From the IMG/VR virus record IMGVR_UViG_2778261226_000007: 31,860 nucleotides of DNA. One strand, given 5' to 3'. The notes beneath the pieces are model-generated. The model worked only from the letters and a program-made list of their open reading frames with translations. It was not told the DNA's origin and made no database searches. Both the position numbers and the translations under genes were made by a program. The stretch is from a virus. Its lineage: Duplodnaviria > Heunggongvirae > Uroviricota > Caudoviricetes. Position 1 is the first letter of the stretch. Every line of letters starts with the position of its first letter. Below are positions 15,237 to 29,450 of the stretch, piece after piece.

Positions 15237-15620
15237 CTATCGTTTCAACTGAAAGTGAGGCCCATCCTTTAATGACCGCCACTCACCGCCCCATTCGATG
15301 GGGGTATTCAGCTCTTTCGCTGCCTGCTTAAATGCCTGCGCGATTTTCTCGTACAGAGGCCAGTCCCATGACACCTGGCTGCCAACCCAGGCAACAACAT
15401 CCACCGCATCACCGGTCAGGTGGCGGCTGTTCATGGTCTGGCTTTTCCCTTCCGCGACCAGCTGTTTCTGGCGTTCTTTCGTGCGCAGCCCTTCCGTAAT
15501 ACCGAAATCAACCTCCGTCAGCTCCAGCGCACGGCGAACGACAGCAACCAGCTGTGGTTTAACGCCCTCCAGATTCTTTTCGCTGCGACGACTGAATCTG
15601 AATTTACCCGACATATTCAC
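15237..15620 (-). CDS. Endolysin, peptidase M15 family (L-alanyl-D-glutamate peptidase type)
   Basis: 127 aa; SRHLTGDAVDVV looks like an M15 zinc-binding motif. Last gene of the lysis cassette, with its start overlapping the upstream membrane protein stop. Confidence 0.7.
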   Translation of the reverse strand: MNMSGKFRFSRRSEKNLEGVKPQLVAVVRRALELTEVDFGITEGLRTKERQKQLVAEGKSQTMNSRHLTGDAVDVVAWVGSQVSWDWPLYEKIAQAFKQAAKELNTPIEWGGEWRSLKDGPHFQLKR

Positions 15621-15892
15621 CTCAACAATGGAAAGATTTTTGTGACGTTCCCGCGTGCGCGTATCACCAGCACGCAGAACAGCAGGTTAAAAAACACTTC
15701 CAGCCAGCCCGTTGCTAACGGGCGACCACACAGATAGCTGAGGGGCGCAAAGGCATACAGCAGCATCAGCAACCAGGCCAGCCATGACATCAGCGGTTTA
15801 TGTCTGGAATCACGACGACGATAAAAAAAGAGCGTCAGCACGATAACCGTGCATAACGCCACATTCAGCAATCCGGGAAGGTTACTTAACAT
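15617..15892 (-). CDS. Small membrane protein in the lysis cassette (holin/antiholin-like)
   Basis: 91 aa, two or three hydrophobic segments, GGAGGAGG RBS. Overlaps the upstream holin-like ORF and is ATGA-coupled to the endolysin. Confidence 0.5.
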   Translation of the reverse strand: MLSNLPGLLNVALCTVIVLTLFFYRRRDSRHKPLMSWLAWLLMLLYAFAPLSYLCGRPLATGWLEVFFNLLFCVLVIRARGNVTKIFPLLR

Positions 15893-16274
15893 TGCCGCCT
15901 CCTCCACCCCGCAGGCGGGAGAACAGGCCGGACACCAGCGATGCAATATCCTGCTGGTGGATGAACGAGAGAATCTTCACCGACACCACGGCCACCAGCA
16001 CCGCACACAGTGCATCCGCCGATGTACCGTCATAACCTGTTTTTGATGCAATCCAGGCTGACAGCACATGCGCACCCAGCACGCCAACGATAAACGACAC
16101 CAGAAAATGCGCCGCCACACGCCAGGCTGAAAGCGCCTGCGGCATCGTTGCCACAAATAACGCCCCAGCGAACGCCCCAAACACAATCCCGAAATCCGTT
16201 CCGGTAAACAGCCCGAATACCGTCGCCCCGCCGAGCGCCGCAGCCGTACCGGAACCGGACAAGGGTTCAGACAT
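15882..16274 (-). CDS. Putative holin
   Basis: 130 aa with several Gly/Ala-rich hydrophobic helices. Start taken at MSEPLSG with an AGGAGA RBS. First gene after a terminator hairpin. Confidence 0.5.
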   Translation of the reverse strand: MSEPLSGSGTAAALGGATVFGLFTGTDFGIVFGAFAGALFVATMPQALSAWRVAAHFLVSFIVGVLGAHVLSAWIASKTGYDGTSADALCAVLVAVVSVKILSFIHQQDIASLVSGLFSRLRGGGGGNVK

Positions 16275-16292
16275 ACTTTTTCTCCTGTAAAT

Positions 16293-16314
16293 AAAAAAGG
16301 GCCACTGTCGGCCC
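16293..16314 (-). terminator. Intrinsic terminator immediately upstream of the lysis cassette (tR'-like position)
   Basis: Minus strand: gggccgacagtggccc followed by tttttt, about 20 nt before the holin RBS. Confidence 0.55.
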
Positions 16315-16404
16315 GTAAAAAAACAACACCCCGTCAAAGGCACCCGCAGATACCTTTTGTGTGGTGTTATCTGATGTGATGTGCGCCGGACGTGGCGCGG
16401 ATAT

Positions 16405-16453: not shown

Positions 16454-17197
16454 TTATTCTTGAGTAACACTTAAACTCATCTCATTGAATGCAGCCATCC
16501 TGTAACCTGCCGGTGTAACACCAAAATAACTCCTGAATACGCTGATAAAATAAGATGTAAAATTATAGCCACACTGAGCAGCGATTCTGTTGATGGCGCA
16601 ACGAGATTGATTCAACAGCATTGCTGCCATTCTCATTCTCTCTGTAAGCAACAACTCACTGAAACAGGTGCCTTCTTCTTTCAGTCTTTTTTTTAACAAA
16701 CTTTCACTGATACATAACCGCGAAGACACATCTCTCAGAGTCCAGTTTGCTGCAATGTCCGTACGAAACAATGCACTAAGCCTGTCACTAATATTGCCAA
16801 TACACGCGGTCAGAAACGACGAAAACATTTTCTCTGATGAGAAAAACGCCAGACACGAAAAGGAAAGCATTTCCGCTAAATTGTCCGTATGAATCTTTTC
16901 CTCACAAAGATAATCAATCAGGATGCCCATCAATTCTGCCTTGGGAAAACTCACGCAAAGATATCGTGGTATTTGCCGGACTAAAACTACATCCTGTTTT
17001 TCGTCTCCACACAACAGGTAACGGATAATTGTCGATTCACTGAGACTTATTCGCCGAAAACATTCCGAAAAGGGCAATAACGATCCAGCTCCCCCCCTGA
17101 CAAGAAGTGCACTACCACTTTCCAGAGAGAGCTCTTTTCCTTCAAAGAGCACAACAAACGGGGAATGAACAAAAACAACAGAACAAGCTTCATTCAT
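16454..17197 (-). CDS. AraC-family transcriptional regulator (AT-rich cargo gene between Q and lysis genes)
   Basis: C-terminal AraC-type double HTH region. Segment is visibly AT-rich; start taken at MNEACSVV. Confidence 0.8.
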   Translation of the reverse strand: MNEACSVVFVHSPFVVLFEGKELSLESGSALLVRGGAGSLLPFSECFRRISLSESTIIRYLLCGDEKQDVVLVRQIPRYLCVSFPKAELMGILIDYLCEEKIHTDNLAEMLSFSCLAFFSSEKMFSSFLTACIGNISDRLSALFRTDIAANWTLRDVSSRLCISESLLKKRLKEEGTCFSELLLTERMRMAAMLLNQSRCAINRIAAQCGYNFTSYFISVFRSYFGVTPAGYRMAAFNEMSLSVTQE

Positions 17198-17319
17198 ATC
17201 AATTGCCCTGACATTACTGGTCACAAGATAAGTATATATCGATTTACAAAAATACAAGCCGAAAGACCAGTATTCGCAACCACCAGCGCGTTTAACGTCC
17301 TGTACCGTTTTTCAGGCAT

Positions 17320-25332: not shown

Positions 25333-25632
25333 TCATCGCGTGGACATTTCTGATGAATCACTCTGCCCATCTTCCGTGCGCGCTAGGCTTGGATTTGAAA
25401 TTTTGCGTAACGAATCAGGAATTCCATCTTCAGGGTGAGGATAAAGATCTGGCCTTAAGCCATGTGGCGTGACCTTCCATGCAACTACTTCACATACGCG
25501 TAAAACAAAACGAGCAGGAATTGTGTTTTTTGAAAACCACTGATTCACCGCTTGCGGAGTTACACCAAGGTTTCGTGCAATGGCATTTTGCGCAATTAAT
25601 GCGCGAAGTACGTCGTAATCATTTCCTTTCAT
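25333..25632 (-). CDS. Cro-like HTH regulator
   Basis: Small HTH protein (NAIARNLGVTPQAVNQWFSKNTIPARFVLRV) transcribed divergently from the CI-type repressor. Confidence 0.6.
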   Translation of the reverse strand: MKGNDYDVLRALIAQNAIARNLGVTPQAVNQWFSKNTIPARFVLRVCEVVAWKVTPHGLRPDLYPHPEDGIPDSLRKISNPSLARTEDGQSDSSEMSTR

Positions 25633-25765
25633 AGCAAAACACCAATATTAACTTGATAACACAAGAATACATCAAGATTAAATTAACATGCAAGTTGCAA
25701 AAGGATCGAATACACTAAAATCAAGTAAAGATTTATCCTTGTAAAGAAACCCACAGGACCTGGTC
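25633..25765. promoter_or_regulatory. Divergent immunity control region (operators and promoters)
   Basis: AT-rich intergenic region with a perfect dyad CTTGAT-N13-ATCAAG (25652-25676), a second near-dyad ATCAAG-N12-CTTGTA (25720-25743) and an 11-bp palindrome TGCAAGTTGCA (25689-25699). Confidence 0.5.
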
Positions 25766-26455
25766 ATGAAGAACGTCAAAAACACGGAAAATCGAATAGC
25801 CGCGATGCTGAAAGCAAAAGGATGGACTCAGGCTCAACTGGCCCGCAAGTTAGGTGTGAGTGCGCAATCAGTGCAGTACTGGACAACAGGAAAGACATTT
25901 CCACGGAGTGATAAGCTTGCGCAGTTATCAGAGATTAGCGGTTATCCACAATCCTGGTTCTTAGGTGAAGACCCCTCACCGACCTTCTCCTCGCCAGAGA
26001 AACACCAGACAAGAACAGATAGCGTCGTGTTTAATGTCCTTGATGTTGAGTTCAGTTGCGGTGATGGAACTCATGTCCGTGGTGACTTGATAGATGTAGT
26101 GCGCTCAATAGAACTTGATCCTGAATATGCCCGACGTCTTGTTGGAAATCGGGCATTCAAAAATATAGAAATAGGTAACGCCAGAGGAGACAGTATGGCT
26201 CCCACAATCTCACCTGGCGACCTTCTTTTTCTCGATAAGACAGTAACTTATTTTGATGGAGATGGCATTTATGCATTTTGTTTTGATGGAGAATGCTACG
26301 TGAAAAGACTTCAAAAAATTGGAAGCAAAATCATGGTGTTATCTGATAACCCCAATTATCAACCATGGAGCATCGAAAAAGAGGGTTTAGCTCTGCTTTA
26401 TATCCAGTCTAAAGTGATCTCATCTGTACCATTCAATATAAACAGATTTGGTTAG
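25766..26455 (+). CDS. CI-type prophage repressor (HTH plus S24 LexA-like autopeptidase domain)
   Basis: N-terminal HTH (GWTQAQLARKLGVSAQSVQYW); C-terminal domain with the catalytic Ser in GDSMAP and Lys in YVKRL. Confidence 0.85.
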   Translation: MKNVKNTENRIAAMLKAKGWTQAQLARKLGVSAQSVQYWTTGKTFPRSDKLAQLSEISGYPQSWFLGEDPSPTFSSPEKHQTRTDSVVFNVLDVEFSCGDGTHVRGDLIDVVRSIELDPEYARRLVGNRAFKNIEIGNARGDSMAPTISPGDLLFLDKTVTYFDGDGIYAFCFDGECYVKRLQKIGSKIMVLSDNPNYQPWSIEKEGLALLYIQSKVISSVPFNINRFG

Positions 26456-26467
26456 TCTTTGATTTTA

Positions 26468-26489
26468 ACGGGCTTTGCCCGTTTTTTTC
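26468..26489 (+). terminator. Intrinsic terminator after the repressor gene
   Basis: acgggctttgcccgt followed by ttttttt. Confidence 0.6.
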
Positions 26490-26518
26490 TGCCTAAAATA
26501 CACGATATCAATTTTTTC

Positions 26519-26547
26519 TTGACAGCCTATTTCGCAAAGCATAATAT
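26519..26547 (+). promoter_or_regulatory. Strong sigma70-type promoter (pL-like)
   Basis: TTGACA (26519-26524), a 17-nt spacer and TAATAT (26542-26547); CTTGAT/ATCAA operator-like half-sites lie just downstream (26554-26575). Confidence 0.6.
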
Positions 26548-26600
26548 CGCGCCATCAACTATAACTTGATTTGATTCAATTTAAAATTGTTGGTGGGTAT

Positions 26601-27053
26601 ATGAAGACACTAAACGCAACTCCAGAAACAACTAATTTTATCAACTGCGGCTGTGTTACGCTTGAAGGCTTAGAACTTGATTCCTTTGCATTAAATATTG
26701 CAAATTTGCTAAGTGCTGTACGCACATTCCATCTTCTTGATTGTGCTCGCTCAAAGGAACTAGGCATTGAGGTAATGGAATTTATCCATGAATATGCTCT
26801 ATCTGCGGCTTCTCCTGCACGACAAAAACAATCCTTCCCTAAAAGCTGGCTGGTTAACCTTCACACCCAACGCGAAGCCTGCGGCTTAACAACCGCCGAA
26901 CTCGCCAGGCTGCTCGATCTCGATGAAGAAATCATCATCCAGTGGGAGAGCGGAGAGTATGAACCAACTATCAGTATGCTTATCCCACTGGCAAATATTC
27001 TTGGCTGCGATCCGATGTGGTTATTGACTGGTAGCAATGCTACAAAGGAGTAA
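26601..27053 (+). CDS. Uncharacterised protein with C-terminal XRE-type HTH
   Basis: Start taken at MKTLNAT with a GGTGGG RBS (ORF-track start is a TTG). C-terminal HTH (LTTAELARLLDLDEEIIIQWESGEYEPTISMLIPLANILG). The N-terminal domain is paralogous to the next gene's product. Confidence 0.6.
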   Translation: MKTLNATPETTNFINCGCVTLEGLELDSFALNIANLLSAVRTFHLLDCARSKELGIEVMEFIHEYALSAASPARQKQSFPKSWLVNLHTQREACGLTTAELARLLDLDEEIIIQWESGEYEPTISMLIPLANILGCDPMWLLTGSNATKE

Positions 27054-27058
27054 CAGCA

Positions 27059-27259
27059 GTGAATAGTAATATCCATGACAATTTCGAAGGTATTTGTCTG
27101 GCATCGGATTCATTTGCAATAAACATTCATAGTCTGTTGTGCGCTGCGCAAGTTTTACAGATGTCAAATAATCAGAATGCAAAAACATTAGGTGATGAAA
27201 TCCTGTCTTTTGCATGTGAATATTCGAAAGCTGCAGTCAAAAAAGAATTAGCGCAATAA
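27059..27259 (+). CDS. Small protein paralogous to the N-terminal domain of the preceding HTH protein
   Basis: GTG start with an AAGGAG RBS 8 nt upstream. Alignable to the upstream product (EG..L.SFA.NI..LL.A......K.LG.E...F..EY). Confidence 0.5.
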   Translation: MNSNIHDNFEGICLASDSFAINIHSLLCAAQVLQMSNNQNAKTLGDEILSFACEYSKAAVKKELAQ

Positions 27260-28222: not shown

Positions 28223-28398
28223 ATATTAAGAAGAATATAATTCTTCCATCTTTTACCAACCGTTTATATGAAAAGCAACCGTGAATTAAACAGAGTAAAA
28301 CTGATTTTAATCCTTGCCACAGTACTGACACTAACTGAAATCATTATTCTCTTTATTGCGCTGTCAGTCGGTTAAAAATATCGGGATACCACAGACCA

Positions 28399-28587
28399 AT
28401 GAGACTGTATTTCACAATAGTAATTTTACTGGCAATTATCGCATGCATTTACGGATTACTCGTTCCGTTCCTTATATCCATGAAGGATACGATAGCAGTT
28501 ATTTCTGGCTTTGCACTGGCGTTTCTGACCCCGCCCTGCATTTATGCCATTTACAAGGGTCTTTCTTTCACTAAGGATAAAAGATGA
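28399..28587 (+). CDS. Small membrane protein (two predicted TM helices)
   Basis: Hydrophobic 62-aa ORF whose stop overlaps the SPFH gene start (ATGA). Confidence 0.5.
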   Translation: MRLYFTIVILLAIIACIYGLLVPFLISMKDTIAVISGFALAFLTPPCIYAIYKGLSFTKDKR

Positions 28588-29411
28588 AAAAAATTATTTT
28601 TGCTTTAGCCATTGTTCTGCCGACTATTGGCCTTGTCGGTTGCGATCGCGTTGAACCAGGTAATGTTGGCATCAAGGTAAATAAACTGGGCGACGACAAA
28701 GGCGTCGGTGAGGTGGTCGGTGTTGGTCGCTACTGGACTGGCTGGAATACTGAAGTTTATATCTTCCCCACCTTCAAACAAATGAAGACCTACGATGAAC
28801 CGTTCAGTTTCCAGATGAGTGACGGTACAACCATCGGCTATCACATTGGCGTGGCCTACAAAGTTGATCCATCCAAAGTTACCACGGTGTTTCAGACCTA
28901 CCGCAAAGGCGTGGATGACATTACCGACACTGACCTGCGCCAGAAGATCGCCGACGCACTCAACCGACTGGCCAGCAAAATGACCACTGACAAATTTATC
29001 GACGGCGGCAAGTCTGAGCTGCTGGATGAAGCTCTTAAAGACATTCAGGCAGAGATGACACCTATCGGTATTCAGGTAATGAGCCTCTCATATGTGGGTA
29101 AGCCGGAGTACCCGCCAACCGTTATCGACAGCATTAATGCCAAAGTCACGGCAAACCAGAAAACCCTGCAGCGCGAGCAGGAAGTCAAGCAACGTGAAGC
29201 GGAGGCCAACATGCTACGTGCGGAAGCTGCCGGACAGGCTGATGCCATTCGAACAAAAGCCCAGGCAGAAGCCGATGCCATTCGTTTACGCGGCGAAGCT
29301 CTACGCCAGAACCCAGGCGTCATGGAGCTGGAAGCCATCAACAAGTGGAACGGTACACTGCCGCAATACATGACCAGTGGTGCCAATACACCATTTATCC
29401 AGATTAAATAA
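28584..29411 (+). CDS. SPFH/band-7 domain lipoprotein
   Basis: Signal peptide with lipobox (LPTIGLVGC); SPFH-like core; C-terminal Ala/Glu/Gln-rich coiled coil (REQEVKQREAEANMLRAEAAGQADAIRTKAQAEADAIRLRGEA). Confidence 0.8.
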   Translation: MKKIIFALAIVLPTIGLVGCDRVEPGNVGIKVNKLGDDKGVGEVVGVGRYWTGWNTEVYIFPTFKQMKTYDEPFSFQMSDGTTIGYHIGVAYKVDPSKVTTVFQTYRKGVDDITDTDLRQKIADALNRLASKMTTDKFIDGGKSELLDEALKDIQAEMTPIGIQVMSLSYVGKPEYPPTVIDSINAKVTANQKTLQREQEVKQREAEANMLRAEAAGQADAIRTKAQAEADAIRLRGEALRQNPGVMELEAINKWNGTLPQYMTSGANTPFIQIK

Positions 29412-29450
29412 CTTATATGCCCGGCAGGCGCCGGGCTAAGGGAAATGCAG

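Follow-up and report, generated by a model that had tools for sequence, protein, structure and literature searches.

What are a very short membrane peptide and an SPFH lipoprotein, encoded by two overlapping genes, doing in a lambdoid prophage, and when in its life are they made? The question is raised by positions 28399 to 29411 of a stretch of 31,860 nucleotides from a virus of the Caudoviricetes (IMG/VR record IMGVR_UViG_2778261226_000007; the whole stretch is called the window below). The window is a phiP27-like lambdoid prophage, integrated beside yecN and cmoA, and is 96.8% identical to phage phiP27 across the region of the gene pair. Both genes are real, and the linkage between them is found across phage types. 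We propose, with about an even chance of being correct, that they are a conserved two-gene phage membrane module made early in lytic growth, in which the SPFH protein would build a periplasm-facing ring or cage on the inner membrane together with the two-helix peptide.

The first-pass annotation of this DNA had described a 62 amino acid peptide with two transmembrane segments whose gene overlaps that of an SPFH lipoprotein, and that description is borne out by the open reading frames (ORFs), the overlap, a Band_7 match, a lipobox and two hydrophobic segments in the peptide (Table 1). In the raw sequence the two ORFs have the tetranucleotide ATGA (28584-28587) in common, and the SPFH gene has an AAGGA Shine-Dalgarno sequence at 28573-28577, 6 nt ahead of its ATG. 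The 4 nt overlap is the commonest arrangement of these two genes among related loci, and because the peptide stop overlaps the SPFH start the two proteins are probably made together. A prophage of E. coli MEI7BO1-21 is 100% identical, and there RefSeq/PGAP calls both genes with exactly matching coordinates; in phiP27 the SPFH gene is annotated as L05 and the small ORF is unannotated. Both genes are under purifying selection, with ratios of nonsynonymous to synonymous substitution rates (dN/dS) of 0.02-0.03 for the SPFH gene and, for the peptide gene, of 0.14-0.16 in comparison with homologues at 68% identity and 0.23 when close relatives are pooled.

Several kinds of evidence, independent of one another, show the small ORF to be a gene. 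Of 80 closely related viral contigs, 79 keep it whole, at 62 codons, and its product aligns to 61 of the 66 positions of PHROG 1130 ("membrane protein"; E = 2.5e-23). When 1.84 billion representative sequences were searched with a profile of close homologues, 82 clusters (at 50% identity) were recovered, nearly all of them 55-90 amino acids long and with the loop motif in common; an 894 amino acid match in the same search was set aside as a repetitive artefact. By Kyte-Doolittle hydropathy the peptide consists of two hydrophobic segments with SMKDT between them and a basic tail at the end, that is, TM1 (residues ~3-26), the loop SMKDT, TM2 (~32-52) and the C-terminal tail KGLSFTKDKR, and AlphaFold2 predicts helices at 2-26 and 31-61 at modest confidence (pLDDT 68.5). 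Residues P23, S27 and G37 hardly vary, and the motif YG-x3-P-x-[LM]-[IV]-S-x-x-D-[TS]-x-x-V-x-x-G runs from the end of TM1 across the loop to the start of TM2. In 12 of 14 examples the charge of the tail is positive overall, and the positive-inside rule predicts that the two termini are cytoplasmic and the conserved loop periplasmic.

Searches with the peptide gave no Pfam family, NfeD included, at E ≤ 0.01 and no significant holin-family match in Pfam or PHROG, and neither the peptide nor the SPFH protein matched any family of PADLOC-DB 2.0 at E ≤ 0.1. Homology among the peptides themselves was examined with leave-one-out hidden Markov models, which recover enterobacterial-phage peptides at E = 1e-8 to 1e-18, that of Xanthomonas phage PB119 at 7e-11 and that of a Pseudomonas phage at 1e-4. 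The peptides upstream of the SPFH genes of Burkholderia phage Maja and crAss-like phage cr126 were not significant in this procedure (8 and 12 bits, where shuffled sequences reach up to 6.3), and are taken to be analogous two-transmembrane ORFs only.

The product of the second gene is a clear member of the SPFH superfamily. Residues 22-208 match Pfam Band_7 (PF01145) with E = 3e-31 and 109.2 bits (cutoff 23.6), the protein falls into PHROG 200 (E = 3.9e-114), to whose family phiP27 L05 also belongs, and profile matches include the PHB2 coiled coil, HflK and HflC. Its N-terminus, MKKIIFALAIVLPTIGLVGC followed by DRV, is a lipoprotein signal peptide (residues 1-19) with lipobox LVGC, lipid-accepting Cys20 and Asp21 at the +2 position, and a lipobox is present in all homologues from Gram-negative phages examined. 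Since a lipoprotein processed by Sec and Lgt lies outside the cytoplasm, so should this one, and an Asp in the +2 position is, in E. coli, the classical signal for retention in the inner membrane. An AlphaFold2 model has the SPFH domain at residues 20-175 (pLDDT 80-95) followed by a single helix of 65 residues (178-242). The last 33 residues (243-275) are highly conserved, with many invariant positions, and have low pLDDT in the monomer, as would be expected of a cap formed between subunits; this is compatible with a ring or cage and does not prove one. The top Foldseek matches of the model are HflC (1.6e-13), prohibitin (3.4e-13) and erlin (7e-13), over ~280 aligned columns, with further full-length matches to HflK, stomatin, flotillin, QmcA and the major vault protein; the best structural matches are subunits of solved cages, and matches to the fold reach as far as giant viruses.

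How constant is the pairing? Where the SPFH gene is complete (250 loci), an ORF of the peptide family ends between -45 and +60 nt from the SPFH start in 236 cases; the loci are redundant and collapse into 20 clusters at 70% SPFH identity, 10 of which have the family peptide, 3 some other small transmembrane ORF and 7 neither directly adjacent. A scan of genome contigs with a single peptide gave 2 loci. In a reciprocal look-up, the exact protein of one peptide homologue led to 10 places, and in all 10 a Band_7 gene overlaps it by 4 nt; the pair there always lies between an S24 repressor gene and xis/int, on the same strand, among flanking genes that vary. In the annotated phage records inspected the peptide gene is directly upstream of the SPFH gene, the two overlapping by 4-20 nt or standing a few nt apart; these records include P2-like phage P88, a prophage of strain UTI89, Klebsiella and E. 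coli lambdoid phages, N4, Klebsiella phage MY01, Erwinia phage S6, Xanthomonas phage PB119, a temperate Pseudomonas phage, and P1-like and SSU5-like plasmids. The small ORF is thus kept beside SPFH genes in related and unrelated phages alike, and the first-pass annotation's pairing of the two genes stands.

The Vequintavirinae also retain the peptide gene, with an ORF of 54-57 amino acids, ribbon-helix-helix-like, between it and the SPFH gene; because the peptide gene is kept in spite of the intervening ORF, translational coupling is not the only reason for its retention. In SE1-like phages (our loci L085, 2332-2505, and L087, 2332-2496) the inserted ORF encodes a soluble protein with a weak RHH_5 match (E = 2e-4). 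More distant SPFH lineages have unrelated small transmembrane ORFs in the same position or just downstream: Kayvirus MbpV, an ORF of Salmonella phage PhiSH19, and ORFs after the gene in Enterococcus phage EF24C and in HJTV-2. Since such unrelated ORFs adjoin distant SPFH genes, the association of phage SPFH genes with small membrane-protein ORFs is broader than the homologous peptide family. The PhiSH19 example (locus L107, 1932-2150, minus strand) is an unannotated ORF of 72 codons that overlaps the SPFH lipoprotein start by 4 nt; it encodes two hydrophobic helices with a very basic loop and the opposite predicted topology, and is not a homologue of the peptide family.

The pair is an accessory one. 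Of 5426 complete E. coli genomes, 393 (7%) have it, and every E. coli context inspected is a prophage or phage-plasmid, which disposes of the possibility that it is a housekeeping host operon. It is also found on 631 plasmids, almost all of them non-mobilizable and 95-115 kb in size. In P1-like plasmids it lies between dmt and ban; in one of these, pM121-2 (locus L101), it replaces a segment of P1 (L104) that contains tRNA genes, plp, upl and tciABC, and the dmt-ban interval appears to be a variable cargo site within the C1-controlled ban region. The possibility that P1 upl and plp are themselves the pair was rejected; P1 plp encodes a 125 amino acid protein on the other strand. Phage-plasmids like SSU5 and pMT1, including Yersinia pestis pMT1 itself, carry the pair with ~80% identical SPFH proteins, and on pMT1 (locus L103, 2797-3831) it is downstream of exonuclease and recombinase genes. 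A tblastn search with the SPFH protein matched 737 phage records, many of them of strictly virulent phages: N4 and other Schitoviridae, Vequintavirinae, Ounavirinae, Bruynoghevirus, BcepF1-like and phiCbK-like phages, Kayvirus, Enterococcus EF24C, haloarchaeal viruses, crAss-like phages and Lak phages. An SPFH lipoprotein has been seen by mass spectrometry in a preparation of a virulent Vi01-like phage (PMC10892097).

The position of the pair in these genomes bears on the time of its expression. The first-pass annotation had placed it in the immunity region, on the lysogenic side of the switch, and here our analysis disagrees. Downstream of the cI-like repressor gene (which encodes helix-turn-helix (HTH) and S24 domains) the plus strand carries, in order, a 160 amino acid HTH protein gene, several small ORFs, a gene for a 212 amino acid protein, the pair, DUF5406 and DUF4222 genes, and the excisionase and integrase genes. 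A scan for terminators predicts one directly after cI, with a 7 bp stem that includes 5 GC pairs and a T tract, and a strong sigma-70 promoter like that of a lambdoid PL follows, flanked by operator-like 14-mers. Because of this terminator and operator-flanked promoter we assign the pair to a PL-like operon rather than to the lysogenic side. The pair is 1.9 kb downstream of the putative PL in the same operon, which runs on into xis and int; the scans predict no terminator between that promoter and the end of the SPFH gene, and no plus-strand promoter in the 176 nt gap (28223-28398) before the small ORF. Three more copies of the 14-mer lie between cro and cI. The pattern ATCAAGWWAWWRTT, with at most one mismatch, has 6 matches in the window against 0.4 expected, 5 of the 6 at the two control regions, although this statistic is inflated because the pattern was defined post hoc, once the repeats had been seen. 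The heptamer ACTTGAT alone is not enriched across the window (6 against 4.9 expected); it is only its clustering, and the longer 14-mer, that are suggestive. The arrangement is that of the PL operon of λ, an early operon read leftward under repressor control, with xis and int at its end. From this layout the pair is most likely silent in the lysogen and expressed upon induction.

Other carriers place it similarly. It is in the Cox-side early operon of P2-like phages, in the dmt-ban interval of P1-like elements and in the early or middle region of N4, and its presence in these places and in strictly virulent phages such as N4 argues for a function in the lytic cycle. A role for the dormant prophage, whether lysogenic conversion or immunity, through exclusion of other phages at the envelope or alteration of the host surface, would fit the pair's place downstream of cI and on the same strand in the window and in related lambdoid prophages, its company of accessory genes (the category of PHROG 1130 is "moron, auxiliary metabolic gene and host takeover") and its restriction to so small a fraction of E. 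coli genomes; by analogy, a prophage-borne HflK/C-like protein of Pasteurella multocida has been reported as a virulence factor (PMC9872710). We consider such a role unlikely: it is opposed by the predicted terminator, the separate predicted promoter with its operator-like sites, the gap in which no promoter is predicted, the xis and int genes (which are needed at induction) at the end of the operon, the occurrence of the same pair in strictly virulent phages and, within P2-like and P1-like elements, in early lytic operons, and the lack of any PADLOC match.

Table 1. Positions of the gene pair and of other features of the window.
Feature	Position	Strand	Remarks
Small gene (62 aa)	28399-28587	+	ATG to TGA; ORF list and raw sequence
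SPFH gene (275 aa)	28584-29411	+	ATG to TAA; ORF list and raw sequence
Putative coupling junction	28573-28587	+	AAGGA Shine-Dalgarno within the end of the small ORF, then ATGA stop/start overlap
GC-rich hairpin	29412-29440	+	RNA fold, dG -17.2 kcal/mol; directly 3' of the SPFH stop
DUF5406 ORF	start at 29445	+	next after the SPFH gene
Cro-like gene	25333-25632	-	
cI-like repressor gene	25766-26455	+	HTH and S24 domains
Predicted intrinsic terminator	26467-26492	+	AACGGGCTTTGCCCGTT (26467-26483), then T-run; directly after cI; terminator scan
Predicted PL-like sigma-70 promoter	26519-26547	+	TTGACA-17-TAATAT, 10/12; promoter scan
Operator-like 14-mers at the PL-like promoter	26510-26523; 26557-26570		first over the -35 hexamer, second just past the -10 hexamer
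Operator-like 14-mers between cro and cI	25644-25657; 25671-25684; 25720-25733		
160 aa HTH protein gene	26571-27053	+	
66 aa ORF	27059-27259		
AT-rich palindrome	28229-28245		GAAGAATATAATTCTTC; just 3' of the stop of the 212 aa protein gene
35-codon ORF	28268-28375	+	MKSNRELNRVKLILILATVLTLTEIIILFIALSVG
Two holin genes and endolysin gene	15237-16343	-	late region
267 aa protein gene (PHROG 1450)	16454-17257	-	just upstream of the lysis cassette

Several smaller features of the window were noted. The GC-rich hairpin after the SPFH gene has no U tract, and the terminator scan made no call there. In the gap ahead of the small gene lies an unannotated ORF of 35 codons with one hydrophobic helix, which relatives preserve whole in 21 distinct sequence variants. 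No Shine-Dalgarno sequence is obvious ahead of it, its dN/dS (0.47) is below the values for the remaining two frames (1.23 and 0.75), and it may encode a third small membrane protein. The same gap contains a perfect palindrome, which as RNA would form a weak hairpin (-4.9 kcal/mol) followed by CATCTTTT, and which could be a weak terminator or a protein-binding site. The 66 amino acid ORF is a paralogue of the N-terminal, non-HTH half of the 160 amino acid HTH protein (38% identity over 52 residues, E = 7e-9), so that this regulator looks to be accompanied by a truncated copy of its own N-domain. On the other strand, the 267 amino acid protein gene stands where phiP27 presumably carries stx2e. 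No toxin gene was seen among the ORFs scanned in the window, in which no proper check for toxins was made.

The best-known proteins of similar build are HflK and HflC of E. coli, which cage the FtsH protease (PDB 7vhp, 7vhq, 7wi3 and 9cz2). They likewise have an SPFH domain, a long coiled-coil helix and a conserved C-terminal segment, and lie on the periplasmic face of the inner membrane, as is predicted for the phage protein. They differ in being encoded by a K/C gene pair and in having an N-terminal transmembrane helix, whereas the phage protein has a lipid anchor and is encoded by a single SPFH gene, the flanking ORFs being non-SPFH. Identity between them is only ~17-20%, and the phage protein is phage-borne and has a dedicated two-transmembrane peptide partner. 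Scored against the NCBIfam equivalog models for the FtsH modulators HflC (TIGR01932) and HflK (TIGR01933), it reaches 25.9 bits (cutoff 134.4) and 23.1 bits (cutoff 159.4), and orthology was rejected on these scores, the single gene and the lipid anchor.

Mimicry without orthology is a separate matter. A phage SPFH ring might surround host FtsH, or compete for it, in the periplasm and so shift which membrane or regulatory proteins are degraded, in temperate phages lysogeny regulators of the CII/CIII type for example. The λ PL operon carries the FtsH inhibitor gene cIII, and the pair occupies the equivalent operon; its best structural and sequence matches, HflC, HflK and the prohibitins, cage AAA proteases on the same membrane face. 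Set against this are the equivalog scores, the absence of a K/C gene pair and of the N-terminal helix, the occurrence of SPFH homologues in haloarchaeal viruses, and the frequency of the pair in virulent phages, which make no lysogeny decision and so argue against any role limited to that decision. An HflK/C mimic seems to us no likelier than a function in the dormant prophage.

It is a rule among SPFH proteins that the gene shares an operon with one for a small membrane protein (PMC2636767), and the SPFH-NfeD operons, E. coli QmcA-YbbJ (PDB 8z5g) and the archaeal stomatin PH1511 with NfeD protease PH1510, are the closest known parallel in organisation to the phage pair. The resemblance has limits. 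NfeD partners carry an OB-fold or a protease domain, whereas the phage partner is 62 amino acids long and consists of two transmembrane helices only; the phage partner gene is upstream of the SPFH gene with a stop/start overlap, unlike the order in SPFH-NfeD operons; and QmcA faces the cytoplasm, whereas the phage lipoprotein is predicted to face the periplasm. We therefore keep from the first-pass suggestion of a minimal NfeD analogue the likeness between operons, in adjacency and ATGA overlap, and drop homology, since there is no Pfam NfeD match and the two helices fill the chain and leave no room for an OB-fold.

The Staphylococcus phages of the K group (Kayvirus) have a comparable arrangement, in which a small transmembrane-protein gene (mbpV) overlaps and precedes a phage SPFH gene (mbpS). 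MbpS differs in having an N-terminal transmembrane anchor and no lipobox, and MbpV, with 102 amino acids and one transmembrane helix, scores 4.7 bits against the peptide profile, that is, without detectable homology. The Kayvirus pair is in the lysis region, where mbpS follows the holin-like mbpV between lysK and tgl, and its function has only been speculated upon (PMC7150955). This raises the question of lysis timing: the peptide might be a holin or antiholin, with an SPFH ring corralling it or the real holin, so as to delay or sharpen permeabilisation of the membrane. The peptide does resemble a class II holin in its two transmembrane helices and basic C-terminal tail, a crAss-like phage has a peptidoglycan hydrolase gene two genes downstream, and the N4 peptide has a very weak holin-family match (E = 0.044). 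That match is not significant, however, and in the window the peptide has the topology of a class II holin without a holin-family match or a place in the lysis cassette. The two holin genes and the endolysin gene of the window are in the late region of the other strand, 12 kb away, a distance that argues against a core lysis function, and the pair is in the early operons of lambdoid, P2-like, P1-like and N4 genomes. We rate lysis timing in this form as less probable than either of the two preceding explanations. That the small ORF is no protein partner at all, but a leader that sets SPFH expression or a chance neighbour, is very improbable, for although the SPFH gene has its own Shine-Dalgarno sequence and that of the small ORF is weak in the window (by anti-Shine-Dalgarno duplex energies), the two proteins diverge independently (see below) and some SPFH lineages have unrelated small ORFs or none in that position, the small ORF is under purifying selection at the amino acid level, its near-invariant residues and loop motif persist through its 82 clusters into distant phage families, and the Vequintavirinae keep it across an intervening ORF.

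Our preferred explanation remains the early lytic membrane module. We infer that its SPFH protein oligomerises, contacts the peptide, is retained in the inner membrane and is repressed in the lysogen. Transcribed with xis and int from the repressor-controlled PL-like promoter, the pair would stay off in the lysogen and be expressed once the prophage is induced or a cell infected, so that both proteins would appear early in the lytic cycle. The SPFH protein would be exported, lipidated at Cys20 and, because of the Asp at +2, probably kept at the inner membrane by an anchor in the outer leaflet, with the SPFH domain and the long helix exposed to the periplasm, the same side and overall architecture as in HflK/C, prohibitins and erlins. 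By analogy with these it would most probably be homo-oligomeric, a ring or dome enclosing a patch of the inner membrane. The peptide would be a helical hairpin, with both termini in the cytoplasm and its short conserved loop in the periplasm, and would serve as membrane-embedded partner or client of the SPFH ring.

A number of observations weigh against this model. Several SPFH lineages lack the peptide family, having some other small transmembrane ORF beside the gene or none. The identities of peptides and mature SPFH proteins are uncorrelated (Spearman 0.13 over 91 pairs); the mature SPFH protein of P88 is 96% identical to that of the window while its peptide is 22% identical, and in a P1-like plasmid the figures are 95% and 31%. 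Such uncoupled divergence implies that any contact rests on a few conserved loop residues, or that the proteins may not touch. The DNA shared with P88 (locus L002, 4135-4880) is 28632-29377 only, the mature SPFH part, at ~91% identity, and includes neither the signal peptide, the small ORF nor the last 11 SPFH codons; the mature SPFH coding block seems to have been exchanged between unrelated phages independently of the peptide partner. The +2 residue is D, Y or G in SPFH homologues, yet S, N or E in some, which makes inner-membrane retention a prediction and not a rule. The promoter, terminator and operator calls are predictions at the level of consistency, and an internal promoter could still express the pair in the lysogen. 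Our literature search turned up no work on the function of a phage SPFH protein or the peptide, and a paper of 2026 says of a phage SPFH lipoprotein that the reason for it "remains unclear" (PMC13239085).

With regard to function, the guess we favour is insulation or stabilisation of the infected cell's inner membrane from its periplasmic side; the module would thereby block genome entry by superinfecting phages or prevent premature failure of the membrane. T4 Imm and P22 SieA are phage inner-membrane superinfection-exclusion proteins that act on incoming phage genomes, and the early timing and membrane location predicted for the pair are compatible with a comparable role. No sequence relationship between them and the pair was found, there being no PADLOC or Pfam match to that effect, and no established superinfection-exclusion system is known to rely on an SPFH protein. 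Genes near the pair in N4 (Pfam GP17 family) and PhiSH19 that are labelled "superinfection exclusion" encode unrelated soluble proteins, and the labels were not used as evidence. Among the possible roles we would tentatively put exclusion first; membrane integrity or lysis timing comes second, level with functions other than those considered here, and the gating of FtsH or another protease is the least favoured of them.

A stronger form of the model, in which the peptide and SPFH protein are an obligate, physically interacting viral membrane scaffold, the phage counterpart of SPFH-NfeD with a minimal partner of unrelated origin, deployed early in infection to wall off patches of inner membrane on the periplasmic side, is one that we would at present bet against, while regarding it as a real possibility. 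If true, hundreds of temperate and virulent phages of Gram-negative hosts would use such a scaffold, and it would be an unrecognised way of excluding genomes or of controlling membrane failure.

The sequences themselves are not new, since both genes are already in PHROG families and annotated in RefSeq as hypothetical, but the conserved pairing and its breadth appear to be undescribed. SPFH proteins are among the most widespread of membrane scaffolds, and structures of their cages have been solved only recently; here a large group of phage SPFH lipoproteins is accompanied by a dedicated, sequence-conserved hairpin peptide of 60-70 amino acids. The pair travels as a unit through lambdoid prophages of the Stx type, P2-like prophages of uropathogenic E. 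coli, P1-like and SSU5/pMT1-like phage-plasmids and N4, and it offers a compact and tractable genetic system in which to ask what a viral SPFH cage does and what form a minimal SPFH partner can take. With the timing of expression corrected as above, the pair would be relevant to the lytic growth of these phages rather than to the resting lysogen.

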